Below are positions 24,717 through 46,786 of a DNA stretch of 64,000 nucleotides, in pieces. Under the pieces are notes generated by a model. That model had not been told where the DNA came from. It ran no database searches and saw only the letters and a list, made by a program, of their open reading frames with translations. Position 1 is the first letter of the stretch. Each line of letters opens with the position of its first letter. This stretch comes from a virus, in IMG/VR virus record IMGVR_UViG_3300022903_000002, positions 41,083 to 105,082 of that record, one strand, 5' to 3'. The position numbers and the translations under genes are program-made.

Positions 24717-25262
24717 TCAGCGTCGCCTGAGGAGACGTTCCCACCAGGTCGGAGGGACGTAGTCGAAGATGTAAGCCCCATCCTCAGTAACAGCGCCAGT
24801 CCTCGACTTCGCGTAGACCGGACCGCGATCGTCTCCAGTTACCGGCTTCATCCCTGCGATATCTGGGAGGACATTGAGCTCGGACACCTCACCGTCATAC
24901 GGTCCGCCGGACAGGAGGATACGGTATTGCTGGGCAGCGGACGCCTCATCGCCGGCCGGCTGAGGGACAGCGTGAAGCGCTGGCTTTGCCGGTTCGTTGC
25001 GAGCCGCCGCGGAGTGTTCGAATGCGAAGACGTGGGCACCGTCGGAGGTCGTCTGCCCCGTAGGGACGTAGAACAGGTTCACGCCCCTTTGCCTCGGGTG
25101 GCGCAACTGGACGATGTCAGGGAATTTGCGGATCCGCACTCGTTCGCCGTCGCACGGTCCGCCGAACAGGTGGATCCGGTACTCCTGGCCGCCGGAAGTC
25201 ATCGGTCGCTCCGTCTCTGGGCGGGTGGCGCGACACCTCAGCGCGAAGATCAGGTTCCGCAT
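24717..25262 (-). CDS. Hypothetical protein with duplicated GGPxDG domain
   Basis: YRI.L.GGP.DGE...DGA..F occurs twice. Confidence 0.6.
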   Translation of the reverse strand: MRNLIFALRCRATRPETERPMTSGGQEYRIHLFGGPCDGERVRIRKFPDIVQLRHPRQRGVNLFYVPTGQTTSDGAHVFAFEHSAAARNEPAKPALHAVPQPAGDEASAAQQYRILLSGGPYDGEVSELNVLPDIAGMKPVTGDDRGPVYAKSRTGAVTEDGAYIFDYVPPTWWERLLRRR

Positions 25263-25305
25263 GCGCCCCCTCCCGCCCTGTTCAGCGTTGTGAAGCAGGG
25301 GGGCG

Positions 25306-25479
25306 TTACGGGAGCGGCACGAACTCAGCGCCCAGCCGCCTCAGTTTCTCCGCCGCGGCCTGCTCGTCCATGCCGACGAGCCGTAGCCCCCGGCCGCGTC
25401 CGTAGGGTGCAGCGTCCACGACCTTCCCGTTCCGGATGACGATGCCGAACGTCGCGCGGGGGAGCGATACCCAAATCAT
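25306..25479 (-). CDS. Small hypothetical protein
   Basis: MIWVSLPRATFGIVI..VVDAAPY ORF. Confidence 0.55.
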   Translation of the reverse strand: MIWVSLPRATFGIVIRNGKVVDAAPYGRGRGLRLVGMDEQAAAEKLRRLGAEFVPLP

Positions 25480-25502
25480 GCGGTCAGCAGGATCGACCAG
25501 CT

Positions 25503-25745
25503 TCACGATGCGCTGTCCTCGGTGATCCCGCACGCCCCGCATGTCCACCCCGAAAGGGCGCAGTCCGACCCGCAACCATTCCAGTTACGGCACGTCGAAC
25601 ACTCTCGCCCGTTATGAAGCGCCCTCGCGGGCTGGCCGCACGTAAGGCATACGGCGACCTGGCCAGAGCCTCCACCCATCGCGCGGGGAAGGACGTTGCC
25701 GCTGTGGTCGGTCTCGTGGACGTCGCGGACCTCGAAGTTGCTCAC
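25503..25745 (-). CDS. Small Cys-rich (zinc-binding) protein
   Basis: Multiple CxxC pairs; coupled to the recombinase stop. Confidence 0.55.
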   Translation of the reverse strand: MSNFEVRDVHETDHSGNVLPRAMGGGSGQVAVCLTCGQPARALHNGRECSTCRNWNGCGSDCALSGWTCGACGITEDSAS

Positions 25746-26755
25746 GTCTCGCTCGCTTCCTGGTGGAGAGGCTCAGCCTCGCGGTCAGCCAACGTCTTTC
25801 GTCTGCGGGCCGCCAGGACGAGCCCAGGTCGCTTGTCGCGCCGGTTGCGCGCCCGGTCGTACCGACGAGTGGTCTTCGGATCCCGATGCCCCAGGGCGTC
25901 CTGTACGTCCACCAGCGGCACGCCTTCGTCCAGCGCGTGCGTGGCCATGGTGTGTCGCAGCGAGTGTGGGCCGAGCCGTTCCCACGACTTGATGCCCGCC
26001 GTGCGGGCGAGATGCCGGATCAGCCTCCAGGCATACGCCTGATCGATGCGGAAGCCGGAGACGTTCAGGAACAGAGGCTCATCTTTTGCGGGCTTGCCGC
26101 GCTCCGCGAGGTAGGCATCGAGCGCTTCGGCGGCAATCTCCTCGATATGGCGGTGCGTGATGCTGCCGCCCTTCATAGTCAGGGCGATGGTCCGCTCGCC
26201 CTCGTTCCAGCCGAGGTCTCCGATGTTGGCGGCTACCACTGAGCCGACGCGTAGGCCGGCGTAGAACAGGACGGCGATCAGGGCCGCCGAACGCTTGCAG
26301 TCAGCCTCTGCGGCGTCGAGCAGCTGGTTGAGTTCGGCTTCGCTCAGCCCGACGGCGTTAGAGACGCTCTGGTCGATCTTGGGCCGCTTCACGGCCTTGG
26401 CGGGGTTGGTCTCGATGACCTCTTCGTCGGTGAGGTACTGGTACCACGAGGACACGACGGCCAGGCGGCGGGAGATCGAAGCGGGGGAGTAGCTCACCTG
26501 CTGGAGTGCGTGCTTGTAGGCATCCACGTGAGCGCGGCGGACCTTGAGCGGGTCGAGGTCGCGCTCGGCGCACCAGGGGAGCCAGCCGGGAACCTTCATA
26601 CGTGGGGCGGTGCTCATGAGGTCGCGAGCGTAAGCGACCTTGGTGTGTTCGCTGCCCTGGGCGAGTAGCCATGCAGCGACCATCTGCCGGATCGTGTCTT
26701 CAGCATCGTTTGACCGCGCGGGAAGAGGCGCGACAGTCGGTTCGAGGGCGGTCAT
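25742..26755 (-). CDS. XerC/D-like tyrosine recombinase (putative resolvase)
   Basis: SAM-like N-terminal domain; GLR, KGG, PHSLRH, LGH..PKTT.RY catalytic motifs. Confidence 0.9.
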   Translation of the reverse strand: MTALEPTVAPLPARSNDAEDTIRQMVAAWLLAQGSEHTKVAYARDLMSTAPRMKVPGWLPWCAERDLDPLKVRRAHVDAYKHALQQVSYSPASISRRLAVVSSWYQYLTDEEVIETNPAKAVKRPKIDQSVSNAVGLSEAELNQLLDAAEADCKRSAALIAVLFYAGLRVGSVVAANIGDLGWNEGERTIALTMKGGSITHRHIEEIAAEALDAYLAERGKPAKDEPLFLNVSGFRIDQAYAWRLIRHLARTAGIKSWERLGPHSLRHTMATHALDEGVPLVDVQDALGHRDPKTTRRYDRARNRRDKRPGLVLAARRRKTLADREAEPLHQEASET

Positions 26756-27654
26756 CTCTTCCACAAGTGGACCTTCTCTCCGCCGAGCATCGGCGCTCCC
26801 TCGGGGCCTTTAACATGGGGGGCGATCCAAACCGGGCGATGAACCTCACGCTTTGGGTGCCATTGCTGTCGCCAGTGTCCCCTGACGATCCACTGGTGGT
26901 GGTATTCCCGTCCTGATGCTTCGGATTCGTCCGAGGATGTCTGGGAGCGTCGCAAGGTGATGATCCTCACGGGGGCCGCTTCAGGATCGATCCGAGCTAT
27001 ACGTTTGCGGTCAGCGCGAGAGTAGGTCGCGTCTTCAATGTTCAGGATCGACTGCTGCATCAGTGTCCAGAATGTCTTCGTGACCGCGCCGTGTTTCTGG
27101 GCGCTATCGACATCGGCTGGCTTCCCGGGTTCTTGTCCGAACGACCACCAGCCGGGGACATGTGTCTCGTGAACTAGCGGGAGCATCCGCCTTGTCGCTT
27201 CGACCAGTTTGGGATACGCGGAGATCTGGTCCGTGTAGTCCCGGCGCTCTGTCAGCCAGATCGTTTGAACACCCTGGCCTTCGAGTACAGCCCAAGCGAA
27301 CCCGTGGACTCTCTCCGTAATGGGTTCGAACACGTTTGGAGCTACTTCGACTTCGTAGTCTCGATTCCAAAGAGGTTCGGGAGTGTAGAGCAGGCCGACC
27401 ATCGAGGGAAGATCCTCTTGTTGCAGAGAGTAGTCAGGGATGGTTTTTGCAGCCTCGACCGCCAGTTGGGCCATCTGCGGAGCGACGTAGTAGAGGTCAA
27501 CGCTCACGGAGGCGAGAAGATCAGCAAACTTGATCCGCATTGCTGTAGGCGTCTCAGATGGGTAGACGTTGTCGAAGAACGCCTCGGCGCGACCGTCTCG
27601 GTACCAGGCCAAGAGGTCATGCTTGATCATCGGTAGATCGACTGCGCGGATCAT
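26752..27654 (-). CDS. Conserved phage hypothetical protein
   Basis: C-terminal HQWIVRGHWRQQW..VWIAPHVKGP motif. Confidence 0.7.
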   Translation of the reverse strand: MIRAVDLPMIKHDLLAWYRDGRAEAFFDNVYPSETPTAMRIKFADLLASVSVDLYYVAPQMAQLAVEAAKTIPDYSLQQEDLPSMVGLLYTPEPLWNRDYEVEVAPNVFEPITERVHGFAWAVLEGQGVQTIWLTERRDYTDQISAYPKLVEATRRMLPLVHETHVPGWWSFGQEPGKPADVDSAQKHGAVTKTFWTLMQQSILNIEDATYSRADRKRIARIDPEAAPVRIITLRRSQTSSDESEASGREYHHQWIVRGHWRQQWHPKREVHRPVWIAPHVKGPEGAPMLGGEKVHLWKR

Positions 27655-27681
27655 GTCTCATTCTCTCATTTCCGCAGGTCA

Positions 27682-27709
27682 GATTCAGATAAATGGAATT
27701 ATCCTTGCA
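27682..27709. other. dif/res-like tyrosine recombinase site
   Basis: gattcaGATAA-atggaa-TTATCcttgca (ATAA-N6-TTAT core) just upstream of the recombinase operon. Confidence 0.55.
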
Positions 27710-28425
27710 CTGATTAGGGGCCCCGAACCCCTGTTGAGCCGGGTTTCTGTCTGGTCGAGCATGCGTAGAAGTAGGTCCGCCAGCAGGACCGCCTCACTGG
27801 CTATCACCGGATCGTCGTAGTCGACGGCCCGGTGAGACGTCGGGTTCTTGAACAGTCCGATCGCGCCGGCGAAGAGAAACATCGCCGCTTCCTGCTCGCC
27901 GCCGTCCGCTGCCGTGTCGACCAGCGGTCCCGGGCCCTGCCGAGAGAACGCCTGCTTCATCAGTGCTACGCCCAGTGTCGAGCCAGGCAGATTAGCGAGT
28001 TCGCGTACTCGGATTTCGACTTCGCGCATAGCCGCGAAGACCGCCAACTCGTACTCACCAAGGAGGAACTGTTGCTCTACCTGCTGAGCAATCCGGGAAT
28101 GAAGGGCCATCCCGAGCCGTTCGGCTGCCGCAAGCTTGGCTATTCCGTACTTCAGTGTCTCACGACCAAGCCTGCTTACGCGGTATGCGTCTGGGGACAT
28201 CTGAGAGGGATCAGGTGTTACTAGTCCGTGTGTCATGAGCCACCCCCAACCCTCGCCGAGCGCGGCGCTGATCTCTGGGTCCTGTGCAGTGCCGTAATTC
28301 TCTGCCGCGCGCATCCAGTTCCGCCAGTTCGAACCTCTGCTAGAGGCATAGCTCTGGAGGATGAGGAGAGCCAGCGCATCGATTGGTAGGGCAAGTGTCT
28401 CTTGCTTCGAACGGTTCCAACTCAT
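27685..28425 (-). CDS. TIGR02391-family protein
   Basis: AVFAAM..VE..VR, G..LM..AF, LFAGAIGLFKNPTSHR. Confidence 0.75.
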   Translation of the reverse strand: MSWNRSKQETLALPIDALALLILQSYASSRGSNWRNWMRAAENYGTAQDPEISAALGEGWGWLMTHGLVTPDPSQMSPDAYRVSRLGRETLKYGIAKLAAAERLGMALHSRIAQQVEQQFLLGEYELAVFAAMREVEIRVRELANLPGSTLGVALMKQAFSRQGPGPLVDTAADGGEQEAAMFLFAGAIGLFKNPTSHRAVDYDDPVIASEAVLLADLLLRMLDQTETRLNRGSGPLISARIIPFI

Positions 28426-28490: not shown

Positions 28491-31409
28491 TCAACTATCG
28501 CTCGGCCGGTCCCACGTCTCCCGAATCTCAATGACCTCTACCCGCTTCTCGACCGGAAGGTCATCAAGGAACCGCGCGTCGCCGTAGGCCGCCCGCTTGG
28601 CTTCAATGGCCTGTTCCTCGCTGGCTGCGATGAAAGGCACCCATGTTGCGGTGCACCACGCGCCGTTTGGGTTCTCGCGGCGGAGGTGGAATGTATGTAT
28701 GGAGTCGTCCGTGGCTGAAGCACCATGCGTAGGTCTGCTCAAGCATCGCTGCCGCCTCTCCTTGGTGATCTTGGGGGTTTGTTTTGCGTCACCCGTATTG
28801 GAGTGCGCAGCCGTGGTCGGCGCAGTGCTCCATGCCGTCGATGAGCGACCGCAGCGCCTGAAGGTCGAACGACTCGTTCTCGTTCAGGTTCGGTGCGATC
28901 CCCCACTGCTCGGCGACGACACGGAGGCGCGGCAACATCCGCCGGCAGTTCTCGGAGGAGATGAACCCATGCACGTCACTGGAGTTCAGGAGCGGCTCCA
29001 GCGCGGTCGGGTGGTCTTCCCAGTCGCGCGGGAGTACTTCGGTGCTGAAGCCGCGCATCTTGTCGAGGTCGATGCCGTCAAGCGAGGCGAGGCGCTTACG
29101 GAACATTCCGTAGCCGACGTAGTCCCACTGGGCGCCGCCGGGGCTGAACGAGACTCCCATATTCGCCCCCCTATCTATCGCTGGTGGGCGGTTCGTTGAT
29201 GCTGGCTGGTTGCGGCTGATGGCCCTTGCCGTTGCCGCCGCACTTCTCGGTAAGCATGCGTCCGCGCGGGAGATAAAGGGCTCCGCCGCAGTCGCCGCAC
29301 CGGGTGATCATCCAGACCTTGTCGACGCCCGCGCCGCATTCGCACATGGCGGGCGGGTTGTAGCCGTCGAAGTGGAGACCGTCGTGGTCGCACCGATATC
29401 TCACGTATCCGGCAGGCCGGGACGTGTCGTTGCCGTAGGTGGCGGCATAATTGGGGGTGAGCATGGGTCAGGCTCCTACTGGTCGCGTGATCCACTGGAC
29501 TCGGATACGGGGGTGCTCCCCCGCGTGCTCGTTAGCGGACCTCTCGGCGCCGCGGCGGGTCTTGTAGTTGTTCGCAGTCCACGGGCAACTCCCGCAACGC
29601 CACGAGTACGTATCGTCACGGAACGGGTTCGCATACACGTTCATGGACGAGCCGACGATGATCGAGCCGGCAGGTGGCGGGGCTGCCTTGGCGACGGTTT
29701 GGACGATCTCGCTGATGGAGGTCCGTTCCGCAGCGGACCTGAAGACGCGTTGCGCGGTGTCGATGTCACCGCGGGCGATCGCAGCGATGACGGCCTTGGC
29801 GTCGCTCATGCCGCCTCCCGCTTCTCCGGGTAACGGCGGTGGGTTGCCCAGCCGTCCTCGGTGAGGACGTAGCGGCCCTTCTGGTAGCCGAGGTGTGTTG
29901 GGACCGGTTCGGAGAGTAGGCCTGCGTCAATGAGCGGGTGGATGTATTCCTCGGCTCCGCGAGGCAGGCGATCCGGATACCAGACATGCTTGGCGTCCGG
30001 CCGGTCCGGATTCGTCATCATGTCCAGTAGGTCGTCGCCAGCCTTCGCGACCTGTACGCGCGTGAGGTGGCAGCCGAGTTCGCCACGGGCGGCCATGGCG
30101 AGGATGCGGCGTTGTGTCGCGTTCGGCTTGCCCGTGTACGGGTCGTACCAGCCGAGGAACGGCTCACGCCCGGCTTCGGCCTTGACCCACTCTTCCTGGT
30201 AGGTCATCGCGCCATGGCGGCAGTCCTGGATACCGGTGTGGAACATTGCGGGCGGGCCACCGGGAAGTTTCAGGTTGTCGCCGGGGAACGTCACGGGCTT
30301 CTGTCGGGTCGAGATCGGTTCCTCGCAGTACCAGCAGGCGCCCTCAGGGATCGACATGAGGCGTCGCGCTCGGCGGAGGGCATGGCTCGCTTTCGACTGC
30401 TCGCGCAGGTCCCGGCACGGCACGGGTTCGCCGCAGTGGGCGCAGACGGCGTAGTGCTCGGGCAGGACACGCCACGCTTGGTGGTCCTCGCCGTAGATGG
30501 AGATGCCTTCGGCTGCGGGGTCGTCGGCGCGCTGGAGGAAGATCTGCCCGGAGCCAGCGAGGACATCGATGACGCGGTACACGCGATCTTCGTGGGCGAT
30601 GAGCCGGCCGACTGGTGGCGTGCGGCCGTACACGCGTCGCTCACCGATCTCATCGAGGACGTGCTGGTACTCGCTCACTGGCCCTCCTGGTCGGTGATGG
30701 ACTGCCGGGTCCGCTCGATCAGCGCAGCGAGTGCGATCACGGGGAGCCCTCCTGTGTCTCTCCAGCCCTACCGGGGGCATCGGGCGTCTCGCGGTTGATC
30801 AGGATTAGCTCGCGGACGCAGGTCGCCCGGATGTCGCGGACGCAACCGGCGATGAAGCGCTCACCGCGCCGGTTGAGTTGGACTGTGGTCTTAACACCAG
30901 CCAAGCCGTGCAGGTTGGTCCACTCCGGATCGTCGGAGTGGATGTGCAGGTCGATGAACAGGTTCGGGCCCCGGTTCTGACGGCAGAGCGCTCGGTAGTC
31001 ACGCTCGGCCCTCCTTTGTTCGCGGACGAGCCGACCTGCTTCGAGGATCGCGCGGGCGACGACTCGGGGTGCGGCGATCACGCCGGACATATCCATCTCA
31101 GCCCTCCTGAGCCTCTGTGGCCCCGCCGGTCGCCTCCGTAGCCGCAGACACGGGAGAGGGGGCGTCAGCGTTGCTCTCAGGCTCGCTGCGGTAGTCGAGG
31201 TGTGGCACGCCTGCCACGCACATCGCCCCGCAGTGCTGGCAGTGGAACTGGCCCAGCGGCGCGCCAACGAGCTGTTGCGGCTCCCACGGCCATGGGCAAC
31301 GCTCGCCCATCTCGTTCAGCGGGGCGTCGATGCTCATGTCCCTGGACAGGTCCAGGGCGACGGCATCCTTCGGTGCAATGTCTTTCCAAGATCGGACGGT
31401 CTCAGCCAT
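28491..31409 (-). CDS. Run of coupled small hypothetical genes (28491-28742, 28789-29160, 29171-29464, 29468-29809, 29806-30678, 30737-31096, 31098-31409), several Cys-rich
   Basis: Tightly packed minus-strand ORFs with RBSs and stop/start overlaps; no function recognised. Confidence 0.6.
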
Positions 31410-31413
31410 CGGT

Positions 31414-32619
31414 TCAGTCCTCTCCGCCCGTGGGGGCGTCCGGGGTCGTCTCAGGGAGGAGATTGCCGCTCCAGTCGACTCCGGCTCGGCGGGTTACCTC
31501 GGCGTCTCCGGGGGCCTCAGGGGCGTCCAGGGCGGCAAGGACTTCCGTGGCGAGACATTCGTAGGCCGTCCGCCAGGCGTTCCACCTGACCTCCTCGACG
31601 CCGTTCTTAGCCTCGTTCACACGCGTCGCTGCCGAGCGGGCTCGCCTCTTCCAATCGGACGTGAGCGCTCGGATGGCGGCCTTGAGCGCGTCCCGCTCGG
31701 TCTCGGCCGCGACAACACGGTCATCGTCAGGTGGCGGGACGTCCAGCGGAACCCACACGCCGCCGCGCTGCTCCTCGGTGCGGAAGACACCGAACGCGCG
31801 GCGGTAGCGGATGCGGTCACCGGTCTCTGGGCTCCACACTTCGTGCCAATTCTCGCGGTGACTACGCGGCAGGTCGCACTGGATCGGGAATGACCAATGG
31901 ACGGAGATGCAGCGGCTCTCGTCGGACAGGTCCGGTGTGATCTCAGCGCTCATCGTTTGTCTCCTCGGTGGTGGCCTGTCGCCCTCGGCCGCTATCGCGC
32001 GGGTCACGGCCCGCTGGTGCTGCTCGATACGGGAGGACAGCTCGGCCTCGGCGTGCTCGGCGCGGGCGGTCAGGTGAACCAGGTGCTCGTCCCGGACCGA
32101 CAGGGCGGCAGCAGCCAGATCGGCGAAGCTCGCACCGACGAAGTGGGCGAGGCCGACGGAGCCGTCGTATGGCGGGCGCTCCGGCAGGACGCTCGCCTTG
32201 ACGCGCGCTTCGATCGCTTCGGCCATCCGGGCGGGCAGGTCACCGGGATCACCAGCCAGAGCGGCCAGCATGCGGTCGGCGATGTCACGGCCCCAGGCCG
32301 CAGCGATGCTGTCCGCGATCGTGTGGACCTGCCCAAGGGAGTCGCCGTCAGCGCAGGAGAAGAACCCGTAGTTCGCGAACGGGTACATCCGCATCCAGTT
32401 CGTGGCGACCTCGGTCAGGCGCTCGCGCAGGCCCTCAGCGGTTACGGGTGCGCGCTCGCTGGCGGCACGAAGAGCGTCGAGGAGACGGCAGGCGGAGTGC
32501 CAGACCTCACCCTCCCCGTAGGTCTTCAGGTGCTGAGCGACCTGAGCGACATCATCGAACGAGGCTGTCACAGTCGCCGGGTCAGCGGTTACGGGTGCGG
32601 TTGTGTCGTCCGTGGTCAC
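31414..32619 (-). CDS. Hypothetical protein; probable internal start at 31953
   Basis: 401-aa ORF with an in-frame GAGGAG-N7-ATG inside. Confidence 0.55.
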   Translation of the reverse strand: MTTDDTTAPVTADPATVTASFDDVAQVAQHLKTYGEGEVWHSACRLLDALRAASERAPVTAEGLRERLTEVATNWMRMYPFANYGFFSCADGDSLGQVHTIADSIAAAWGRDIADRMLAALAGDPGDLPARMAEAIEARVKASVLPERPPYDGSVGLAHFVGASFADLAAAALSVRDEHLVHLTARAEHAEAELSSRIEQHQRAVTRAIAAEGDRPPPRRQTMSAEITPDLSDESRCISVHWSFPIQCDLPRSHRENWHEVWSPETGDRIRYRRAFGVFRTEEQRGGVWVPLDVPPPDDDRVVAAETERDALKAAIRALTSDWKRRARSAATRVNEAKNGVEEVRWNAWRTAYECLATEVLAALDAPEAPGDAEVTRRAGVDWSGNLLPETTPDAPTGGED

Positions 32620-33041
32620 GATCGCTCCTCACCGGTTGCTGCCATTCGGTAGGTATCGCACGGCCACATGTCTCCACACGCCACGCAGTAGTTGCCAGTC
32701 ATGCCGCCCGGCGCGGTCTCACGCGCGTGCCATGCGCCGATCCTGGACAGGCGCTCTTCCAGGGTCTGGATCCGCTGTATGGCGAGGTAGGTCCGCGCGT
32801 CGAGGTTCCGCTCGTCGATCCATGCACCTCGACCGCGAGGAATGTTGGCCAGGTCGAGTAGATGGTGCGCGACGACCGCGAACATGAGTTGCTCGGCGAC
32901 GGCCGTCGGCAGGTCCGGCGGCCCAGGGTTCGGGAGGATCGGGTGTGGCTTGCCCTGGAGGATCTGGAGGAGCGTCCAGTTGATCTCCCCCGGCTCGGTG
33001 GTGTCGTCCTGCGGTGTGCGCTCGGGTGCGGGCTCAAGCAT
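32616..33041 (-). CDS. Hypothetical protein (H..CxxC..WPC motif)
   Basis: AGGAGG RBS; CVACGDMWPCDT. Confidence 0.6.
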   Translation of the reverse strand: MLEPAPERTPQDDTTEPGEINWTLLQILQGKPHPILPNPGPPDLPTAVAEQLMFAVVAHHLLDLANIPRGRGAWIDERNLDARTYLAIQRIQTLEERLSRIGAWHARETAPGGMTGNYCVACGDMWPCDTYRMAATGEERS

Positions 33042-33294
33042 CGTTGCCTCCTGCCGATGCGCTCTGCGGTACCTGCGTGTGATGCTCGGCCTGCCACGCC
33101 ACGATCTGCTCACGAGCCGCAGCGATACCGTCTAGATGCCGCTGCGGCGATCCCGCCCGGCGGCACAGGTCCTCGTACTCGACCAGCAGCCACGGCGTCA
33201 CCTGATCCTGAGCGCGGAACACGAACACGGGCTCGTCCTCGCCGATGTCGCCGCACTCCAGCTCGACACGTCCGTACTTACGATCACAGGCCAT
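33034..33294 (-). CDS. Small phage protein with DEPVFVFRAQD motif
   Basis: 86-aa ORF. Confidence 0.65.
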   Translation of the reverse strand: MACDRKYGRVELECGDIGEDEPVFVFRAQDQVTPWLLVEYEDLCRRAGSPQRHLDGIAAAREQIVAWQAEHHTQVPQSASAGGNDA

Positions 33295-33472
33295 CTCAGG
33301 TCTCTTTCTTTTTGGGTGATGGCGGGGTTTTCTGCGGCGCTCCTTACTGCGGAGGATTCGCATTCGCGTGGTATCGAGTTTGAGGGGAAGTCGCTATCGG
33401 ATACGCTCCCGCCATTTTATCAAGTTCGACGTGATCGGCAGGCGTTAATGAATGGCTACCGGGAAAGCGTGA

Positions 33473-38272: not shown

Positions 38273-38276
38273 TACG

Positions 38277-38770: not shown

Positions 38771-39247
38771 TTAGTGGAGTCGCCACACGATGACGGCGAA
38801 GATCAGGAAGCAGATCGAGCGGGCGGGTCGCTGGATCAGCCATGCGGCTGCGTACAGCGCCCAGGACGCGGGGATCGCGATGAGGAAGCAGTGGATGCGT
38901 TGCGCCAGGCGGAGGAACGGAACGCCGCCAGCCATGGGGGCGGCCTTCGCGTAGGCGAGGAGCTCGTAGGTCGACGCAGGGTGCTCGGCTTTGAAGCCGG
39001 AGTTGCGCCCGGGCCAGTTCCCGAGCTTCGCGAGGGTCTCTTTGGCTTGGGAGATCCACAGGTCGACGACCTCGTCTACGGCGCTGAAGTCCTCTTCCTC
39101 ATCGGTGTCGGCGCCGCGTTCGCGGTCACCTTCGGTTACACTCTCCTCGCGCGCACCCGGGCGCGCCCGCGCGTCGCGCCCCTCCGTCGCGTAGGGGACC
39201 TCTTCTTCGAGCAACGGCCCGTTGCCCATTGCGCTTTGCCTCATCAC
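38771..39247 (-). CDS. Membrane protein (transfer cluster)
   Basis: C-terminal TM segments; coupled to neighbouring genes. Confidence 0.55.
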   Translation of the reverse strand: MMRQSAMGNGPLLEEEVPYATEGRDARARPGAREESVTEGDRERGADTDEEEDFSAVDEVVDLWISQAKETLAKLGNWPGRNSGFKAEHPASTYELLAYAKAAPMAGGVPFLRLAQRIHCFLIAIPASWALYAAAWLIQRPARSICFLIFAVIVWRLH

Positions 39248-39695
39248 TGCCCGTCACCTCCTTCCAGATACTGGATGCGCGTGTTGATGAGCCTGATCAT
39301 CTGGTCGACCTCCGTTACGGACAGGCCTGCTGGCAGGTCGGCGACGATCCGCCGCCAGCGGTCGAACTGGACCGCGACGCGCTCCTGCGGGGTCCGCACC
39401 CGGCGGGCCTTCCGGTCAAGGAGTGCCTGGCGTCGCTCGGCGCGTGCCTCGGATCGAGTGCTCACGGGGTCGCCTCGACGTCTGACTGCTCGGCGTGAGC
39501 GCCCTGCGGCTTGATGTAGGTCCGGTACGCCCAGATGGCAGCGATGCCGAGTGTGATGATCACGATCAGCCCGACGAATCGCATGTACGTGTGGAGGTTG
39601 CGATCCATAGCGGTCGCGACCACTCCGCCGGCGACCGCCCCGGAGATGGTTGCGGCAACAACGGTCGTGACCACTGGCCTGATGTTGGTGGTCAT
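39244..39695 (-). CDS. Two small genes (39244-39465; 39462-39695, two TM segments)
   Basis: Coupled ORFs. Confidence 0.55.
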
Positions 39696-41218
39696 CCGGT
39701 CTTCACCTCACTGGTCTGCTGGTGGTCTTTTGGGGTGGTCGCGTCCGCCTGGTCGTTGCCGCGGTGTCCGCCTCCGACCGGTCGCGGACCGGCCTCCTGG
39801 ATCCGCTTGAGAGCCCAACTCGGGGAGAACCCGAACCGCTTGGCGAGGGCACGCTTCGACAGCGGCGACCCTGCCTGGACACTGGCGAGGTACGCGTCCA
39901 CTGCACGCTGGTTGTCCTCGGTGGATGGTTGCGGCTTGGTGGTCGCGTTCACATGGTCGCGTCCGGTCTTCCGGGTGGACTTCTTGGCCGGTCGCGTCCG
40001 GTTGGCCGGGTGGTCTTTTGGGGTGGTCGCGTCCGCCTGGTCACTGGACGCAGGAGGCTGGACGTTCGGGTAGTCGCGTCCACTGGTTTCGATGGCGGCG
40101 CGTCCGGTCGCGGTAGTGGTCGCGTCCACCGGTCGCGGGGTGGTCGCGTCCACCGGTCGCGGGGTGGTCGCGTCCACCGGTCGCGGGGTGGTCGCGTCCA
40201 GGTGGTCGCTCGGCCGCGTCCGGGTGGTCGCGGACAGGGTGGTCGCGGCGCCGTCCGTCCAGAACAGCCGGACGCGGGTCTTGGGTCCGGTGACCGGACG
40301 CGCGACGGTGGACGCGACCACCAACCGGACGGAGGGCCGGCGGTCTTTCGCGAGCCGCTTCTGGTTCTTCGCGATCGCCCTCTTGCGGTCGATCCTGTCG
40401 ATCTCCGTGACGGCCGCGGTCCACGCCTCGTCAACGGTTCTGATGCCGTAGCGGACCGCGAGGGACCATGCATGCCACGTGATGCGCGGGAACCGCAGCC
40501 ACCGGAGGATCCCGAACCGCGGCCGGGCCTCAGCGACCTTCCCTTTCGCGCGCAGGTGCTTGCGGTGAATCAGCGAGGAGTACAGCTCCCACAGGGCGAT
40601 GCCGACGAGGCTCATGGCACCGTAGGAGACCGCTTTGGGGTTGGGGTCGAGGTTGATGTGCTGACGTATCGTCTGCGCGTTAAGGCGTTCGGTGACGACA
40701 GGGCAGGCGTGCCAGTAGTTCATCGCGCCGGCCGAGCAGGCGAACAGCCAAGTCGCGAACCGGAATAGTGCGCCCCGGTCACCATCTTTGCGCGCTTGGT
40801 GGTACATCCAGCCGGTGAAAGCGGTCGTCAGCTCCCATGCGGCGGCAAATATCAGGGCGCCGAGAAGGGGCCAGCCGAGTTTGTCGTGCGCGAATCCGAT
40901 CTGCCCAATCCACGCGACCGCCATAGGAGCGAGAATCGGCCCCGTGATCATGACTCGCCGACCGACCGTTGGCATTAGCGCCTGGATCTTCTTCGCAAGT
41001 TTCTGCCGGGCGTGCTGGCGTCGAATGCGGCGCTTCGCCTGTTCGTTGGCGCGGGTCTGCTTCTTCTCCTCGTCGAGGATCAGTTTCTGCCGCTCGCGCT
41101 GAAGGCGCAGCTGTTCCCGTTCGTGGCTGAGACGAACACGGGTCTCTTCGGTGATGCGTGCCTGCTCGGCGGAGACCTGGATACGGGTGGCTTTGCGGTC
41201 GGCGGGGATCTCGCTCAT
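39692..41218 (-). CDS. DUF2637/Spd-like spread protein
   Basis: Coiled coil, about four TM segments (..GAMNYWH), low-complexity repeat region, C-terminal HTH (SKRALAKRFGFSPSWA). Confidence 0.7.
   Translation of the reverse strand: MSEIPADRKATRIQVSAEQARITEETRVRLSHEREQLRLQRERQKLILDEEKKQTRANEQAKRRIRRQHARQKLAKKIQALMPTVGRRVMITGPILAPMAVAWIGQIGFAHDKLGWPLLGALIFAAAWELTTAFTGWMYHQARKDGDRGALFRFATWLFACSAGAMNYWHACPVVTERLNAQTIRQHINLDPNPKAVSYGAMSLVGIALWELYSSLIHRKHLRAKGKVAEARPRFGILRWLRFPRITWHAWSLAVRYGIRTVDEAWTAAVTEIDRIDRKRAIAKNQKRLAKDRRPSVRLVVASTVARPVTGPKTRVRLFWTDGAATTLSATTRTRPSDHLDATTPRPVDATTPRPVDATTPRPVDATTTATGRAAIETSGRDYPNVQPPASSDQADATTPKDHPANRTRPAKKSTRKTGRDHVNATTKPQPSTEDNQRAVDAYLASVQAGSPLSKRALAKRFGFSPSWALKRIQEAGPRPVGGGHRGNDQADATTPKDHQQTSEVKTG
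39721..40250. repeat. clt-like repeat region: ~3.5 x 24-bp tandem GTGGTCGCGTCCACCGGTCGCGGG plus a 34-bp direct repeat
   Basis: Tandem array ~40116-40200; identical 34-mers at 39721-39754 and 40009-40042; many GGTCGCG copies. Confidence 0.85.
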
Positions 41219-41532
41219 GCCGCCACCTCGTCGCGTTGCTGCTGGATCTTCTGGCGTTCGTCGATGTTGTAACCGCCCCAGATGCCGTACTGGTCGTGAC
41301 GGTCAAGCGCGTCTTCCAAGCAGTCGACACGGACCGGGCAGCCCTCGCAGATCGACCTAGCGAGCGGCGCACGCCGTCCCTTCGCCGGGTACCAGGCGTC
41401 CCCTCCGACGTCACGGCACGCGGCGTCGTCCTGCCATTCGAGGCCCCGCATGTCCAAGGCGAGGGCATGGAGGAAGGAGGCGACACCACTGCCCCAGGGG
41501 GAGGATGCGTGGTGGCGTTGGCGGGCGGTCAT
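41215..41532 (-). CDS. whiB: WhiB-family transcription factor
   Basis: W...AAC, CEGCPVRVDC, GIWGG. Confidence 0.9.
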   Translation of the reverse strand: MTARQRHHASSPWGSGVASFLHALALDMRGLEWQDDAACRDVGGDAWYPAKGRRAPLARSICEGCPVRVDCLEDALDRHDQYGIWGGYNIDERQKIQQQRDEVAA

Positions 41533-41535
41533 GGC

Positions 41536-41979
41536 TCAGACCTCTTCGTTCGCGTTGTCGGGGAACAGCTCGGCGTCCAAGGCGGCGAGCCACTCTTCGT
41601 CCTTGCGGGACAGTTCGACGGTCATGGACTCGGGATGGCCAGCCGGCGGGGCGTCGAAGGAGCGGACGACGCTGCAGCAGGAGCAGGTCTCCCCGTACTG
41701 GCGGAGCTCGCCATCGGTCACGTACTCCAGCGGCACCCAGCCGTGCCCGTCCCGGACGCAGTCCTCGATCTGCGTGCATGACGCGCACAGCATCTGCAGG
41801 GACCCGTCCGGCTGCTCGGTGATCGACCACATGAAGTCGACGGGCAGGAGGCGGAGGGCCGTACCGCGGGAAGTGAAGAGCGGCTGGACGTCCTCGTAGC
41901 CCTTCCACCAGTCCGGTCCACACATGTCGCAGGTTGCGGTGGTCGCACCATAGGTTTTGCCGAACGTCATCGGGTTCAC
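41536..41979 (-). CDS. Cys-rich hypothetical protein
   Basis: CxxC pairs; GGAGG RBS. Confidence 0.55.
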   Translation of the reverse strand: MNPMTFGKTYGATTATCDMCGPDWWKGYEDVQPLFTSRGTALRLLPVDFMWSITEQPDGSLQMLCASCTQIEDCVRDGHGWVPLEYVTDGELRQYGETCSCCSVVRSFDAPPAGHPESMTVELSRKDEEWLAALDAELFPDNANEEV

Positions 41980-42091
41980 CTCCCGTTGGTGGTCGTGTCG
42001 GTGGTCTGGGTGTTGTCGGCGGCCTGCTGCTCGAGCTGGCGACGCAGGAACTGCTGATCGACTCCGTGGCCGACCGGGTCGGTGTAGGCGC

Positions 42092-42472
42092 TCATGACCG
42101 ACCTCCTTCGGCGCGGGCGGGGTAGTGGTCGCCGAGGTGGTAGCGCTTGTACGTGCCCTCTGGCACGTTCAGGGAGTGCCGCTTGCCGTTCTTGCCGCGA
42201 ACCACGAGGACCCACACAGACCGGCACTCCACCGGGAGGGGCATCTGCTTGCAGTACGGGGCGGGGCTCACCATGCGCAGGGAGCGTCGAGCGGTGACGA
42301 CACCGGTGATGTTGGGCTTCGTCGTGGGCCTTGCGCTGGTGGGCCCTGGGTGGGTGGGTGCTGCGCTCGGAGGCTTTGTGGGCTCCGTGCGCGGCGCCGA
42401 GCCGGTGCTGGCGCATCCAGCCGTACCTACGAGCAAGCCAGCGGCAGCGACCACGCTGATGAGTTTCGTCAT
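42092..42472 (-). CDS. Putative lipoprotein
   Basis: Signal peptide with lipobox-like TAGC; Pro/Thr linker. Confidence 0.65.
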   Translation of the reverse strand: MTKLISVVAAAGLLVGTAGCASTGSAPRTEPTKPPSAAPTHPGPTSARPTTKPNITGVVTARRSLRMVSPAPYCKQMPLPVECRSVWVLVVRGKNGKRHSLNVPEGTYKRYHLGDHYPARAEGGRS

Positions 42473-42605
42473 GCCGTCACCGCCCGGTCAGGGTGGAACT
42501 CGTGGTCGACGTCAGCGGCGCGGACGGTGTGTCCACCGTCGTCCCAGCAGTCGAACTGGATCGGGCCGCCGGTCAGGGACGTCTGGTGAATTGGGCAACG
42601 AGCGT

Positions 42606-43229
42606 TCATCGGACGTCACCGCCCGCGCTGTAGAGCGAAGCGATGACCTCATCGAGGTCGACGCCATCGTCCGCACTCAGATCCGAGAACGCCGGATCGG
42701 TGCTGTAGCCGTGGCGTCCCAGCACCTCACTGATCTCAGCGAGTGCCTCGGTGGCGTTCGCCGGGACCGGCCCGCCGCTCCCGCTGAGGCCCTCCACGAT
42801 CCGGCTGACCGAGCCGGCGAGCACCGCCAGATCCATGTCGGCGCGCACCGCGGCGGGAATCCGCAGGTTCGGGTGAGGGGCGTGACCCTCGTGCTCGTGG
42901 CACTCGACCGTGGTGACGACGAGGGAGTGAGTGGTTCCGCGGGTCTCGACGCGGCCCGTGGCGGTGACAGTTGGCGGTTGCAGGATCCTGCCCGGTCCGC
43001 GGACCGGACCGATCAGATCACGGAACTCCTGGTAGTAGAGCGGGAAGACGATGATGCCGATGGATACGTGTTCGCCGCTCAGGCGGAACTCTGCCCAGTC
43101 GTTGCCTTGCCTGGTGCGGTGGGGGCTGTGGCCGTTGAGGATGCCGGTGACAGTGACGATCTCGCCGTCCTCGTGGAGACCGGCAGCGATCGAGGTGATC
43201 GACGGTCCCTGGATGGTGTAGGTCTTCAT
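42606..43229 (-). CDS. OB-fold protein resembling the DnaE C-terminal OB domain
   Basis: VTVTGI......TRQG..WA...L........IVFP..Y ... VTATGRVE. Confidence 0.6.
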   Translation of the reverse strand: MKTYTIQGPSITSIAAGLHEDGEIVTVTGILNGHSPHRTRQGNDWAEFRLSGEHVSIGIIVFPLYYQEFRDLIGPVRGPGRILQPPTVTATGRVETRGTTHSLVVTTVECHEHEGHAPHPNLRIPAAVRADMDLAVLAGSVSRIVEGLSGSGGPVPANATEALAEISEVLGRHGYSTDPAFSDLSADDGVDLDEVIASLYSAGGDVR

Positions 43230-44079
43230 CGGTTCGCACCGCCGTCCTCGTCACCGAGGAACGTGCCGAGCACCTGGATGCCGTTCGAGATCGGAACCTC
43301 ACGGACCGCAGGCTTGGAGATGCGGTCGCGGATCACGGAGACGAAGATCGCCAGGACGATGGCACCGAACGGGACGATCAGAATCGACGCTTCCGTGTAA
43401 CGGATCCATGCGGGTGCGCTCATCGGGGTGAGGAGTGTGAGACCGAGGACCGCGTAGTAGGCGCCGACCGCAACGGTGGGCTTGTAGAGGGTCATGTCGT
43501 CACCTCCCGTTCTGGTGTTGGGTCTTGTCGTACTGGTCGCGGAGGAAGTCGCTCTCGCTGCTGTCGAAGTCGTCGCCGTAGTGCATGACGATGGGGAGGG
43601 CACGCATCAGGACACCCCCGGCAGGTTGCGCTGGTGCTCCATGCCCATCGCGAACGCACCAGCGACGGCAGCGAGGAAGCCATCGACCTCGTCGGTGACG
43701 TCCGCGCCGTTCAGCTGAGCGTCCAGCGCGGCAGCGAGAGCGGTCACGTTGATGGAGGCGGGTACCCGGAACTGCGGGATGCTGTCGTCGTCCGCGATGG
43801 GGCGAGGAACGCCATGCTCTAGAGTGAGTGCCACAGGATCGGTTCCTCTCGTGATGGGGCGGTGACAGGTCCTGCTCGCCCCGTTCCGGTGTTCGCGCAC
43901 CGGGCGGGGCTTCTTGCTGTTCGCGAGGGCGGTCACCATTCGGCTCGCCCCACATCGGTGATCTCTTGTTGACACCGGCAGGTCTGGCAGAAGGCGGTCT
44001 CGCCGATCGTCCACATCGATGCACTACCGGTCGGCCACAGGTAGTGGGCGCAGACGAGCACGACTCGTAAGGCAGCCAT
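43226..44079 (-). CDS. Small coupled genes (43226-43496 membrane, 43500-43610, 43607-43834, 43933-44079 Cys-rich)
   Basis: RBSs and overlapping stop/start codons. Confidence 0.5.
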
Positions 44080-44297
44080 CAGGCGACCGCCTCAGGTAGT
44101 GGGGGGCTGATCCGACGCCGCTCCAAATATTCGGCGACCGACTGCTTGTAGATCTTGATGGGGGCGTTACGGGCAGGCCCCTTGACGGCCTGAAGCTCCC
44201 CGTTCCTGACGAGCCGCCTCACGGTCCACCGTGAGAGATGAAGCTCTTTGCAGGTCTCCGCTGTCGAAAGGAACACGTTGCTACCCTCGCTCTCCAT
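44079..44297 (-). CDS. Excisionase-like (HTH_17/MerR-type) DNA-binding protein; first gene of the leftward transfer operon
   Basis: FLSTAETCKELHLSRWTVRRLVRNGELQA. Confidence 0.8.
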   Translation of the reverse strand: MESEGSNVFLSTAETCKELHLSRWTVRRLVRNGELQAVKGPARNAPIKIYKQSVAEYLERRRISPPLPEAVA

Positions 44298-44380
44298 GTA
44301 GCAGTACGCTACAAGATGCACCAAGATGCTGCAAGGGGGTCTGGCCAAGAGGTTGTTCCAACTTGTTGCAAGGCGCTACA
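44297..44380. promoter_or_regulatory. Divergent switch of the transfer module: operators and leftward promoter
   Basis: TGTAGC-N5-GCTACA (44297-44313) and TGTTGC-N5-GCTACA (44364-44380); minus-strand TTGCAG-N17-TAGCGT 8 nt before the ATG. Confidence 0.65.
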
Positions 44381-44388
44381 ACAGACCT

Positions 44389-44742
44389 ATGAGCGCAGAT
44401 GAACCGGGCGCCCGTTTCGCAGCCGAGGTCGACGCCAGACGGAAAGCGATGGGTCGCGCGGTCGGGTGGCTGGAGGATCGATCGGGTATCGCTCGCAGCA
44501 CGGTTGGCCGCTGGCGAAGAGGCCTTGCTGCGCCAACACCAGAGCCGGTGATCGCGATTGCCGATGCCCTCGGCATGGACCGGACGACAGCGCTGCAACT
44601 CGCTGGGCTCTCTCCGGCGATCGCGGTGGGTGAGGCGGGCGAGCCGATGGCGTTGACCAGGATTCACATTGATGTCCTGCTGGCCGAAATACGTAGGCGA
44701 ATCCCCAATGCTGACGACACTGCGTCTGAAGGCTCGGACTAG
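44389..44742 (+). CDS. XRE-family repressor
   Basis: L..RSGIARSTVGRW..G...P......IADALG. Confidence 0.8.
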   Translation: MSADEPGARFAAEVDARRKAMGRAVGWLEDRSGIARSTVGRWRRGLAAPTPEPVIAIADALGMDRTTALQLAGLSPAIAVGEAGEPMALTRIHIDVLLAEIRRRIPNADDTASEGSD

Positions 44743-44920
44743 TAAGTGGTGGCAGGTTGTGGTTTCTTGGCGCACGACACCACCGTCCGCCTTGCGGGCG
44801 AACCACTGCCATGTAGCAAGGCTGCAACTCGCTGCAGTAACCATGGAGGGATACTGCAGTTCTGTGCACCATCCGCAGTTACCCTGCAATTACACGTTGA
44901 GAAGCCTCTAGGGAGGCGGG

Positions 44921-45583
44921 ATGGACCCGGCTCAGGAGTGGACGGGGCGCACAGCCACCGCGCTCCGCAAAGCCCTACGATTGACCGTCGACCGGTTCGC
45001 CAGCCGACTCGGAGTAGCACCGCGGACTGTCGCGAATTGGTCAGCGCAGCCCGATATGGTCCCGCGCGTAAGCGTGCAGGACGCACTCGACGACCTGCTC
45101 GGCCAGGCGACTCCCGCCGTCCGAGAGCGCTTCACGGAACTTGCTGATGGCAATGAGGGTGCGTCGGTAGGCCATGCTCAATCGCTCCGTGTCGCGATCT
45201 CGGTGGTAACCCGGAATCGAGACGTGCTGCTCGTGAAGCGCCGTGATGACGGGGCAGGGATCTCTTGGCAGTTCCCGGCCGGCGTCATCAAACCGGGCGA
45301 ACGCGGCGAAGACGTAGCCGTGCGGGAGACCCTTGGGGAGACCGGCGTTCACTGCATCGTGCAACAGCCGATCGGCTCCCGGCTCCACCCCGTGACGGGT
45401 GTGTACTGCGACTACTACGCCTGCGACTTCCTCACGGGAGAAGCAGTGAACCGGGATACCGTGGAAAATGCCGGTGTCGCATGGGTGTCGCGCCAGGATC
45501 TGACCCGGTTCGTCGCCCGTGACAAGGTGTACCCGCCGATCTTGCGCTTCCTGGAGGAACAGCGTGACGCAGCCCACCGATAG
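44921..45583 (+). CDS. XRE-HTH-Nudix hydrolase fusion
   Basis: N-terminal HTH (FA.RLGVA.RTVANW); Nudix box PAGVIKPGE......VRETLGETG. Confidence 0.85.
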   Translation: MDPAQEWTGRTATALRKALRLTVDRFASRLGVAPRTVANWSAQPDMVPRVSVQDALDDLLGQATPAVRERFTELADGNEGASVGHAQSLRVAISVVTRNRDVLLVKRRDDGAGISWQFPAGVIKPGERGEDVAVRETLGETGVHCIVQQPIGSRLHPVTGVYCDYYACDFLTGEAVNRDTVENAGVAWVSRQDLTRFVARDKVYPPILRFLEEQRDAAHR

Positions 45584-46001
45584 CCGCCCCGTCATCGCAG
45601 CGGCCGTGATCGTCAAAGACGGTCGCTTCCTGCTCGTGCAGCGGGCCGTCTCGGAGGGCAGCCTGTCGTGGCAGTTCCCGGCCGGCGAAGTCGAGCAGGG
45701 CGAATTGGTAGAGGACGCGGCTGTTCGGGAGACCGCCGAGGAGGCCGGGCTCGTCGTTGTCGCTAAGAGCAGGCTGGGGGAACGGATCCATCCCGCCACG
45801 GGCCGCGAGATGGTCTACGTCGAGTGCGAAGTCATCGACGGAGAAGCGCACGCCGCGGACGATGAGGAGATCGCTGCAGTCTCCTGGATCCGTCTCGACG
45901 AGATCCCCGAGTACGTCCCCTACGGCTTCTACAGGCCGGTGCACGAACACCTTGCCGAGAGGCTGGGAGGCGGACCGCGCGAGCGCACCACCGGCGAGTG
46001 A
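45564..46001 (+). CDS. Nudix hydrolase
   Basis: WQFPAGEVEQGE....AAVRETAEEAG. Confidence 0.88.
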   Translation: MTQPTDSRPVIAAAVIVKDGRFLLVQRAVSEGSLSWQFPAGEVEQGELVEDAAVRETAEEAGLVVVAKSRLGERIHPATGREMVYVECEVIDGEAHAADDEEIAAVSWIRLDEIPEYVPYGFYRPVHEHLAERLGGGPRERTTGE

Positions 46002-46015
46002 AGTTCGGCTCACCC

Positions 46016-46043
46016 GAAGCCCTGGCCTAACGGCTGGGGCTTC
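46016..46043 (+). terminator. Terminator hairpin after the Nudix genes
   Basis: GAAGCCCTGGCC-taac-GGCTGGGGCTTC. Confidence 0.6.
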
Positions 46044-46269
46044 TGTCATCTCTGGGGTCGATGTAGCAGCGGGGCGCTGAGAGCCACCAGGAACTCCCAT
46101 ATGGCTCGGACCTATAGTCGCCCATGAGCAAGGGGCTTTGCGGCCCGCACGTTCCTCCTGGGTGTCGTTTTTGAGGGCATGGCGAAACATGCGCCTCGCT
46201 GTCGAAGGCATAGCAATGGACTCCGTCCTCTCGGAGCGCCGTTCTCGCGTGCGCACGCGCGAGGGGCTC

Positions 46270-46676
46270 CTGGAAGGGGAAGGGGATAGGGGAAGGGGAA
46301 ACCAATACTTCCCACCGTTACTACTCCCCTTCCCCTGTGCCCGACGGGTATCCCTCGCTTAGGGTTCCCGGAAGGGTTCGCTAAGGGTTCTTGGAACCCT
46401 TAGCGAAGGGTTGTGACCTGCAAGGACGCTGGTTCACGGGCTTGCGGCGAACCATGACCTCCCGCCCTCGAAACGGTTGGCCGAAATAGGGGTAGGAAAG
46501 CTGCAAAAACAGGGCCGGTGGCCGCAGTCAGCACGTCCGGTTGTGAGCCTCGTGAACTGCGAGCAGGAAAAATGCGGCAGGGCTTATGTTTCCCCAGGTA
46601 GAAACCCCCGGCGAAGGGTTCCCGTAACCCTTTATAGAACCCTTGGGGGAACCCTTAGAGAAGGGTTGTGACCTGC
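46270..46676. repeat. Iteron-like AAGGGTT/AACCCTT arrays (origin-like)
   Basis: Two clusters with 11-12 bp spacing; 29-bp direct repeat at 46393-46421 / 46648-46676 with one mismatch. Confidence 0.75.
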
Positions 46677-46786
46677 GCTTTCGCGTATCTCGCGCACAAC
46701 ACTGAGAAGGACGCTGATCGGCGCGTGGTGGACTACCTGATCGAGCATGACCGGCGGGATCTGCTCGCGCCAGCCGTGTCCCGCGG

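Follow-up and report, generated by a model that had tools for sequence, protein, structure and literature searches.

The stretch of DNA analysed here, referred to below as the window, is the final 64 kb of a single virus contig of 105,082 bp in IMG/VR (IMGVR_UViG_3300022903_000002, hereafter G000), and its central feature is a train of leftward genes that runs for ~20 kb, from 44.3 kb down to ~24.7 kb, between the lysis genes and two Nudix genes. The genes of the train are co-oriented and tightly packed. In the order of transcription they encode a Xis-like HTH_17 protein, a set of small proteins, a 147-amino-acid (aa) protein, a WhiB-family regulator and a 508-aa SpdB2-like membrane protein, and then three small proteins, a 318-aa protein, a 647-aa translocase, ~8.5 kb of unassigned genes, two cargo genes and a Xer-like recombinase (coordinates of all features are given in Table 1). 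An initial annotation had described an operon of this length and direction with Xer-like, TraB-like, DUF2637/Spd-like, WhiB and Xis/XRE genes, two Nudix genes and an iteron-like region, and each of these was recovered at or near the place assigned to it. Judged from its genes, the block is a bona fide and probably functional DNA-transfer module of the TraB/SpdB2 type, carried by a phage that also encodes its own virion.

The translocase is the gene on which this assignment turns. Among NCBIfam families its best-scoring match is plasmid_TraB (NF041214), with 59 bits over model positions 34–501 of 639 (~470 residues); the Walker A (GSTDAGKS) and Walker B (VTVDEAQ) motifs are intact, and the Pfam FtsK match lies under its curated cut-off. 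An AF2 (AlphaFold2) model based on an alignment of 29 homologs, with a mean predicted local distance difference test (pLDDT) score of 79, consists of four N-terminal helices (residues 52–146), a beta domain, a motor of the RecA type, an acidic linker and, at the C-terminus, a winged helix-turn-helix (wHTH; residues 572–646), the last modelled with pLDDT >90 and matched weakly by wHTH families in Pfam. The N-terminal part is a predicted membrane-association region. The best Foldseek matches of the predicted fold are the conjugation coupling protein TcpA and FtsK motor domains (E ~1e-12, template modelling scores 0.55–0.63). A tblastn search with the translocase matched 127 plasmids, from Streptomyces, Kitasatospora and Micromonospora, and no record among 50,697 phage genomes. 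Its nearest homologs lie in metagenome-assembled genomes (MAGs) of Streptosporangiaceae and Pseudonocardiales (79% and 65% identity, respectively), followed by Actinomadura and Spirillospora chromosomes at 46–50%, and the nearest metagenomic homologs are 55–79% identical. In viral contigs a single-protein query found no TraB, and an alignment-based query succeeded.

The second protein characteristic of such modules is the SpdB2-like membrane protein, which has a charged region (residues 1–90), a hydrophobic region (95–290) and, at the C-terminus, repetitive sequence that includes an HTH-like motif. This layout fits the published plan of SpdB2, with the C-terminal DNA-binding domain remaining putative. 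The protein scores 18.6 bits against PF10935 (DUF2637), for which the cut-off is 22.8; homologs in G002, G023 and L119 exceed the cut-off, and the protein is 31% identical to that of the virus G003, which in turn is a relative of a genuine DUF2637 protein in G002. It matches 94 cultured Streptomyces phages and 81 plasmids. The three small genes that follow it may be Spd-like, judged by their position. Within the last 40% of the SpdB2-like gene the word CGCGACC occurs 17 times in 640 bp, in all three codon phases, and published clt sites consist of 4–9 direct repeats of 7–9 bp (PMC3583192, PMC4447253). The array appears to be a DNA-level cis element, clt-like in form and a candidate cis-acting site of transfer or anchoring. 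The initial annotation was right that clt-like repeats are present, but they lie inside the SpdB2-like gene and not beside traB.

At the upstream end of the train, the starts of the Xis-like gene and of the divergent XRE-family regulator are 91 bp apart, separated by a spacer with two operator-like palindromes, and a related operator-like site (44809–44822) precedes the gene for the HTH-Nudix fusion. Beyond the Nudix genes, the heptamer AAGGGTT is repeated nine times in a non-coding region (46372–46667), with none of 100 shuffles reaching the total seen in the window; the region looks iteron- or centromere-like. At the distal end of the train, XerC/D models match the recombinase at 1e-40, under their cut-offs, and counterparts of this Xer-like gene lie near traB in G001, G003, G021, G424 and L119. 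It is one of only two tyrosine recombinases in the whole contig, the other being the phage-type integrase outside the module.

The module is embedded in what is probably a ~105-kb temperate siphovirus of a mycelial actinomycete, with a host likely in the order Streptosporangiales. Both ends of the contig fall within one AAA_24 ATPase gene, of which ~20 codons are missing as judged against the homolog in G005, so that G000 is an almost closed circle without host flanks. Its GC content is ~65%. The terminase and the SPP1-type portal sit just upstream of the window start and complete the siphovirus gene set (portal, VG15, HK97 capsid, tail tube, tape measure and lysin), and the replication genes are of phage type (AAA_24, DUF5131 and DnaB helicase). 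A megablast search with the window found no DNA-level relative among cultured phages, and the closest of these by capsid are Rhodococcus and Mycobacterium phages at ~55% identity. The capsid has no relative among actinomycete plasmids, which separates G000 from the kin of pZL12 or pSLE1. The element is present in soil and leaf-litter metagenomes of several studies.

The relatives of G000 allow the history of the module to be followed apart from that of the virion. IMG/VR holds 243 capsid relatives, and among those of ~100 kb a TraB-like protein is also encoded by G001, G003 and G004. G001 and G000 are colinear, with TraB at almost the same coordinate, and in G003 the tail and lysis genes are followed by a recombinase, TraB and a SpdB2-like protein; the G003 TraB is near-canonical (plasmid_TraB 1e-114, 384 bits) and has an FtsK-gamma domain. 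Of 401 genomes surveyed in the Actinomadura order, seven have a G000-type capsid; the best of them, G424, has a capsid 85% identical to that of G000 and, 31 kb from it on the other strand, a TraB-like gene, which reproduces the geometry of G000. G424 is an integrated prophage, a single low-GC island of ~105 kb that is colinear with G000 through the head genes, all tail genes and the lysis genes, and then the recombinase, TraB and WhiB. Its TraB is only 23% identical to that of G000 despite the close match of the capsids. No att repeats of at least 18 nt were found at the ends of the G424 island. Between its module and lysis genes, adjoining the Xer-like recombinase, there is a weak tRNA-Asn prediction, its acceptor stem mismatched (G424:C4:588314-588386), for which no repeat was found elsewhere in the island.

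TraB genes also occur in phage lineages with other head genes, namely G021, G022 and G023; G021 shares a syntenic block of seven genes with G000 and a TraB that is 54% identical, and homologs of G000 terminase, portal or tail genes occur in G022 and G023. A search of other TraB-bearing viral records for the HK97 capsid family matched only the positive control and is uninformative on their head genes. In a quick maximum-likelihood tree, from which five TraB sequences without a canonical Walker A were left out, the G000 protein groups first with that of a Streptosporangiaceae MAG, then with AICE-like copies in Actinomadura (AICE, actinomycete integrative conjugative element) and then with phage G021, and the TraBs of the capsid relatives G001, G003 and G004 stand far off on long branches. 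Because relatives carry the module at the same position yet with very different TraB alleles, and because of this grouping in the tree, the comparison indicates that the slot after the lysis genes is conserved in the lineage and that the cassette within it is subject to exchange, with plasmids, other phages and AICE-like elements as the partners. The initial annotation had proposed linkage of traB to the structural genes as a comparison to make among related prophages; the slot is indeed conserved in G001, G003 and G424, but the alleles are strongly divergent and the cassette is one that changes hands.

Outside phages, the same cassette is found on elements without virion genes. The best plasmid match is a genuine linear conjugative plasmid, with genes for a type IV secretion-like system, Tad and ParAB and none for a virion, on which WhiB, a 535-aa membrane protein, TraB and Nudix follow one another in the order seen in G000. 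In an Actinomadura chromosome, DUF2637, two open reading frames (ORFs), TraB and a tyrosine integrase form a compact unit flanked by ordinary cellular genes, and ten genomes with such TraB genes lack the G000-type capsid. The combination of Xis, tyrosine recombinase, Tra, Spd-like, XRE and Pif-like Nudix genes is also that of AICEs of the pSAM2, SLP1 and pMEA300 types (PMC2440964), and the nearest TraB relatives in named chromosomes sit in AICE-like units of Actinomadura.

These likenesses raise the question of whether the block is itself an independently mobile AICE-like element nested in the phage, excised by its own Xer-like recombinase and Xis-like protein, transferred by its own TraB and hitch-hiking in virions. 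Its anatomy would suit such an element, with a recombinase at one end, Xis, XRE and Nudix genes at the other and tra and spd-like genes between; so would the compact DUF2637-TraB-integrase units without phage genes that hold the nearest TraBs of named chromosomes, and the swapping of TraB alleles among phages with common virion genes. We nevertheless consider it quite improbable. No convincing long-range direct repeats bound the 22–50 kb region of G000, as the initial annotation had also supposed, and a search of G424 that used the adjacent weak tRNA-Asn found no nested att pair around its module. The recombinase is without an arm-binding domain, the block runs in the same direction as the flanking phage genes and is closely packed with them, and slot and gene order are kept in at least four phages of the lineage. 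Unlike in AICEs, no RepSA, RepAM/DUF3631 or Prim-Pol family was found among the module ORFs scanned, a set that excluded some small ORFs, and RepSA has no Pfam model. ParA (PF01656) is absent from the whole contig, with control genomes positive (ParB was not searched separately), and a search of the window found no tRNA-like sequence as attP and so did not confirm the site that the initial annotation had named. No joint skipping the module with adequate flanks was seen in metagenome contigs, which were too short to bridge the junction with the lysis module, and this weighs neither for nor against independent excision. Since flanking att repeats, Rep and ParA were not found and the same slot is occupied in relatives, the block is best described, on these comparative grounds, as a cassette of AICE or plasmid descent, exchangeable yet resident in a temperate phage lineage, and not as a fresh AICE insertion. 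The initial annotation had likewise taken it for a part of the phage genome, and the near-closed circle without host flanks, the lack of bounding repeats and the shared slot in G001, G003 and G424 all agree with this; the part of its argument that leaned on the lack of a second arm-type integrase was overstated, because the module does hold a recombinase of its own.

The repeat array is also a shared property of these elements. Five further TraB-bearing phages (G001, G003, G021, G023 and, more weakly, G022) have a lineage-specific 7-mer repeated 7–15 times at the same relative place, which in four of the five is the densest or joint-densest 7-mer cluster of the genome. In each phage the words fall in two or three codon phases, and the largest 7-mer cluster in Markov-random genomes has 4–5 copies. 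G002 and G005, in which TraB was not recognised, have no such cluster. The linear plasmid, the loci of Actinomadura and Spirillospora and several of Streptomyces have like arrays, 1.5–5 kb upstream of traB. In G003 (L101), five of the six genomic copies of GTTGCACC fall within 155 bp directly 3' of traB (33027–33181), an apparently textbook clt-like arrangement within a 100-kb phage and separate from its intragenic array. A RepAM-like origin was considered as an explanation of the intragenic repeats by homology and was ruled out, RepAM being DUF3631 and not DUF2637; the array may still have a part in replication or partition.

Hybrids of phage and transfer module have precedents, and in this respect the initial annotation had overrated the novelty of G000. 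The plasmid-phages pZL12/phiZL12 and pFP4 were reportedly described by Zhong et al. in 2010 and by Chen et al. in 2012, respectively. Like G000, both join virion genes and a Streptomyces-type tra locus on one replicon. [quoted passage not shown] The differences are that pZL12 relies on ParAB for plasmid maintenance (PMC4487206) whereas G000 has an integrase and no ParA that we could find, and that in G000 neither does the capsid have a relative on actinomycete plasmids nor does TraB match a phage record by tblastn.

A parallel in gene order is PhiNon1 of Nonomuraea gerenzanensis, which was shown to occur in circular form as well as integrated at a tRNA-Val attB (PMC5431353). This element (NZ_LT559120.1), whose host belongs to the Streptosporangiaceae, has complete virion genes and, arranged as in G000, DUF2637, small ORFs and a TraB-like ORF of 654 aa; the last is annotated as hypothetical, matches plasmid_TraB at 4e-8 and is ~30% identical to the G000 protein. 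PhiNon1 measures 59 kb against the 105 kb of G000, and the virion genes of the two are unrelated. The portion of PMC5431353 available to us reports no transfer test.

Among cultured phages, Hiyaa (NC_048139) and its relatives Spocter, Galactica and Keanu encode a SpdB2-like protein 38–44% identical to that of G000. In Hiyaa (L164) a gene annotated as FtsK/SpoIIIE-like is located 2 kb downstream, and a cluster of short repeats falls in between: gene 100, which has the SpdB2-like gene 98 on one side and the FtsK-like gene 102 on the other, contains seven copies of GGTCCGG within 600 bp of the plus strand (11064–11660; CCGGACC on the coding strand), and CCGGACC is also the array word of G021. The Hiyaa translocase has no plasmid_TraB match and could not be aligned to that of G000 by BLASTP, and no role in transfer is assigned to it in the literature consulted. 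The TraB-clt-SpdB2 systems of pSVH1 and pSG5 resemble G000 in their FtsK-like pump, which has a membrane part at the N-terminus and a wHTH at the C-terminus, and in a SpdB2 partner with a coiled-coil N-terminus, about four transmembrane helices and a DNA-binding C-terminal domain; short direct repeats are their cis site (PMC4447253), and the array is the candidate counterpart in G000. In contrast to these systems, G000 has a distant TraB (59 bits), repeats inside the spdB2-like gene and not at the 3' end of traB, and an XRE/Xis-like pair in place of a GntR-type TraR/Kor regulator. The hybrid itself is already known from pZL12, pFP4, PhiNon1 and the gene pair of Hiyaa, and G000 adds an uncultured member to the kind; the novelty lies in the comparative picture of a conserved slot and swapped cassettes, the near-canonical TraB with a clt-like array in G003, and the intragenic arrays common to phages, plasmids and AICE-like units.

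We favour, with moderate confidence, the reading that G000 is a temperate siphovirus with a resident dsDNA transfer module of plasmid or AICE type that would move the phage genome between hyphae. We infer every functional step of it from homology and from the plasmid-phages pZL12 and pFP4. Opening of the XRE/Xis-type switch at 44.3 kb would permit transcription of the leftward train, which would yield WhiB, the SpdB2-like membrane protein, small Spd-like proteins and a presumably hexameric TraB-like pump of the FtsK family. The pump would dock on the cis-acting repeat array of the phage DNA and drive the circular genome across the hyphal wall into neighbouring mycelium, and via septal cross-walls within it. 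In the recipient the genome could integrate, replicate or enter the lytic cycle; the Nudix proteins may act like Pif of pSAM2 in blocking redundant transfer, and the Xer-like recombinase may resolve multimers or serve as a second integrase. If the module works in this way, tailed phages of filamentous actinomycetes would have a second, particle-free route of spread through the mycelium; the boundaries among phages, plasmids and integrative elements would then be less sharp, and the flow of genes among antibiotic-producing bacteria of the soil would be affected.

Several observations weigh against this reading. TraB scores 59 bits against a curated NF041214 cut-off of 800 and is a distant homolog; a plasmid-type Rep or Par gene by which an episome could be maintained for transfer was not found; and no repeat array occupies the classical clt position beside traB in G000. 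The close capsid relatives G002 and G005 have no recognisable TraB, which implies that the pump is dispensable for the phage lineage. The array word tracks the SpdB2-like gene and not the wHTH of TraB: G000 and G021 have near-identical TraB winged helices and different array words (with the sub-motif GACCGGT common to both), and G000 and G003 have the same word, unrelated TraB C-termini and similar HTH motifs in their SpdB2-like proteins. Finally, FtsK-like and SpdB2-like genes are present in Hiyaa and other phages in culture, and should any such phage be strictly lytic, the role of these genes could lie in hyphal infection and not in conjugation.

This last point leads to an alternative in which the pump and the SpdB2-like protein serve the development of the phage in a multicellular host, through septal crossing of replicating DNA, partition of the prophage or episome into spores, multimer resolution of the FtsK/Xer type, or exclusion of plasmids and phages. 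Consistent with it, plaque-forming Streptomyces phages in culture carry SpdB2-like and FtsK-like genes (both in Hiyaa, FtsK-like genes in Jaresh, AndoPrime and Geonosis, to which the literature as available to us gives no transfer interpretation), Thoma et al. proposed that SpdB2 homologues on actinophages may help to spread phage DNA (PMC4447253), and the G003 TraB combines its FtsK-gamma domain with an adjoining Xer-like recombinase. We still think it unlikely, because the module shares homology and gene order with genuine transfer modules of plasmids, the corresponding genes of pZL12 and pFP4 do mediate conjugal transfer in a phage context (PMC3583192, PMC4170104), and the Nudix and XRE/Xis genes fit the transfer-control kit of AICEs (PMC2440964).

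The tracking of array word and membrane protein raises the question of which protein binds the arrays inside SpdB2-like genes. Physical linkage alone could produce it, because the array lies inside that gene. We tentatively suggest, as a possibility that may well prove wrong, that the intragenic array belongs to a class of cis site separate from the classical clt, bound by the C-terminal HTH of the same SpdB2-like protein so as to tether the DNA to the TraB pore, and common to plasmids, AICE-like elements and many large temperate phages that swap cassettes of site, protein and pump at a fixed slot. Comparative material is at hand in an integrated relative in a sequenced host (G424), a phage with a near-canonical TraB and clt (G003), and cultured phages with an analogous gene pair (Hiyaa).

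Table 1. Features of the window and the matches on which they are based (positions count from the first nucleotide of the window)
Feature	Position	Strand	Basis and remarks
Virion and lysis arm	1–24000	+	Pfam; colinear with G001 and G424; also includes tail genes
VG15	343–1119	+	Pfam
HK97 capsid	1882–2916	+	Pfam
GT4 glycosyltransferase	2984–3970	+	Pfam
Tail tube	5476–6339	+	Pfam
Tape measure, 1580 aa	7392–12134	+	Pfam
Peptidoglycan-binding lysin	20915–21904	+	Pfam
Xer-like tyrosine recombinase without arm-binding domain	25742–26764	-	PF00589 3e-29, SAM_1; distal end of train
Two lower-GC cargo genes	26752–28425	-	phrog_15934 protein; Hypoth_Ymh protein
Packed genes between recombinase and traB	28789–35302	-	include 324-aa phrog_26381 protein and 401-aa protein
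TraB-like FtsK-family dsDNA translocase, 647 aa	35339–37282	-	NCBIfam plasmid_TraB NF041214 2.7e-16
318-aa protein with N-terminal transmembrane segment	37355–38311	-	conserved neighbour upstream of traB: 32% G021, 28% G022
Three small genes (158, 73 and 77 aa)	38771–39695	-	two with predicted transmembrane segments; syntenic in G021
CGCGACC array, 17 co-oriented copies	39612–40250	.	unit ~GGACGCGACCAC; inside 3' part of SpdB2-like gene
SpdB2/DUF2637-like membrane protein, 508 aa	39692–41218	-	phrog_10376 6e-12; Pfam DUF2637 0.0019
WhiB-family regulator	41215–41532	-	PF02467 5.7e-20
Proximal small genes of train	41536–44014	-	147-aa gene at 41536–41979 kept in G001 (47%) and G021 (41%)
Xis-like/MerR-type HTH_17, 72 aa	44079–44298	-	PF12728 2.8e-10, TIGR01764 2e-7; ATG at 44298 (revised start); first gene of train
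Divergent control region	44297–44381	.	palindromes TGTAGC-N5-GCTACA and TGTTGC-N5-GCTACA
XRE-family HTH regulator	44390–44742	+	PF01381 5e-7; start revised to 44390
HTH-Nudix fusion	44921–45583	+	PF00293 match (the two Nudix genes score 3.8e-15 and 6.6e-21)
Second Nudix hydrolase	45519–46001	+	PF00293 match
Two AAGGGTT/AACCCTT clusters	46355–46676	.	~11–12 bp spacing; each ends in GAAGGGTTGTGACCTGC
Phage-type tyrosine integrase, 493 aa	54827–56308	-	Phage_int_SAM_3 7e-6, weak PF00589; outside module
CI-like HTH_3 repressor candidate	59906–60496	-	faces rightward early genes; outside module; 63% identical in G001

Further observations concern the neighbours of the main genes. The 318-aa neighbour of TraB, used as a query in Protein Atlas, matched hypothetical proteins only. 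At the traB position of G002 (L094), between a bona fide DUF2637 gene and WhiB, lies a 724-aa ORF (9188–11362) with no Walker A and no Pfam family, which is either a very diverged pump or a replacement. The packed genes between recombinase and traB are not common to G021, in which that distance is only 2.9 kb. A stretch of 323 bp (34725–35049), the 101-aa gene just downstream of traB, is swapped for the same 20 nt in contigs of two soil metagenomes from different studies, a natural indel. The two cargo genes have GC and third-position GC contents clearly under those of their neighbours and look like recently acquired cargo within the train. A 181-aa gene at the end of the train contains an internal repeat of 53 nt (24889–24941 and 25144–25196, 79% identical, 255-bp spacing), which suggests a duplicated domain.

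Elsewhere in the window, the ORF at 48887–50059 was considered as an integrase and rejected, being a methyltransferase of the PCMT/PIMT type (PF01135, 6e-29); it is preceded by a short repetitive stretch rich in Gly and Asp, with two 56-nt repeats at 48762–48880 (gene and stretch together, 48759–50059). The DUF2693-FD small RNA family has a weak match at 51095–51142 (E 0.065, under the gathering score). The GT4 gene directly 3' of the capsid gene is kept in all capsid relatives (48–68%), and upstream of the terminase are genes for an NAD-dependent epimerase and a weakly GT2-like protein (G000 30640–31542 and 34368–35171); together the three may form a virion glycosylation kit.

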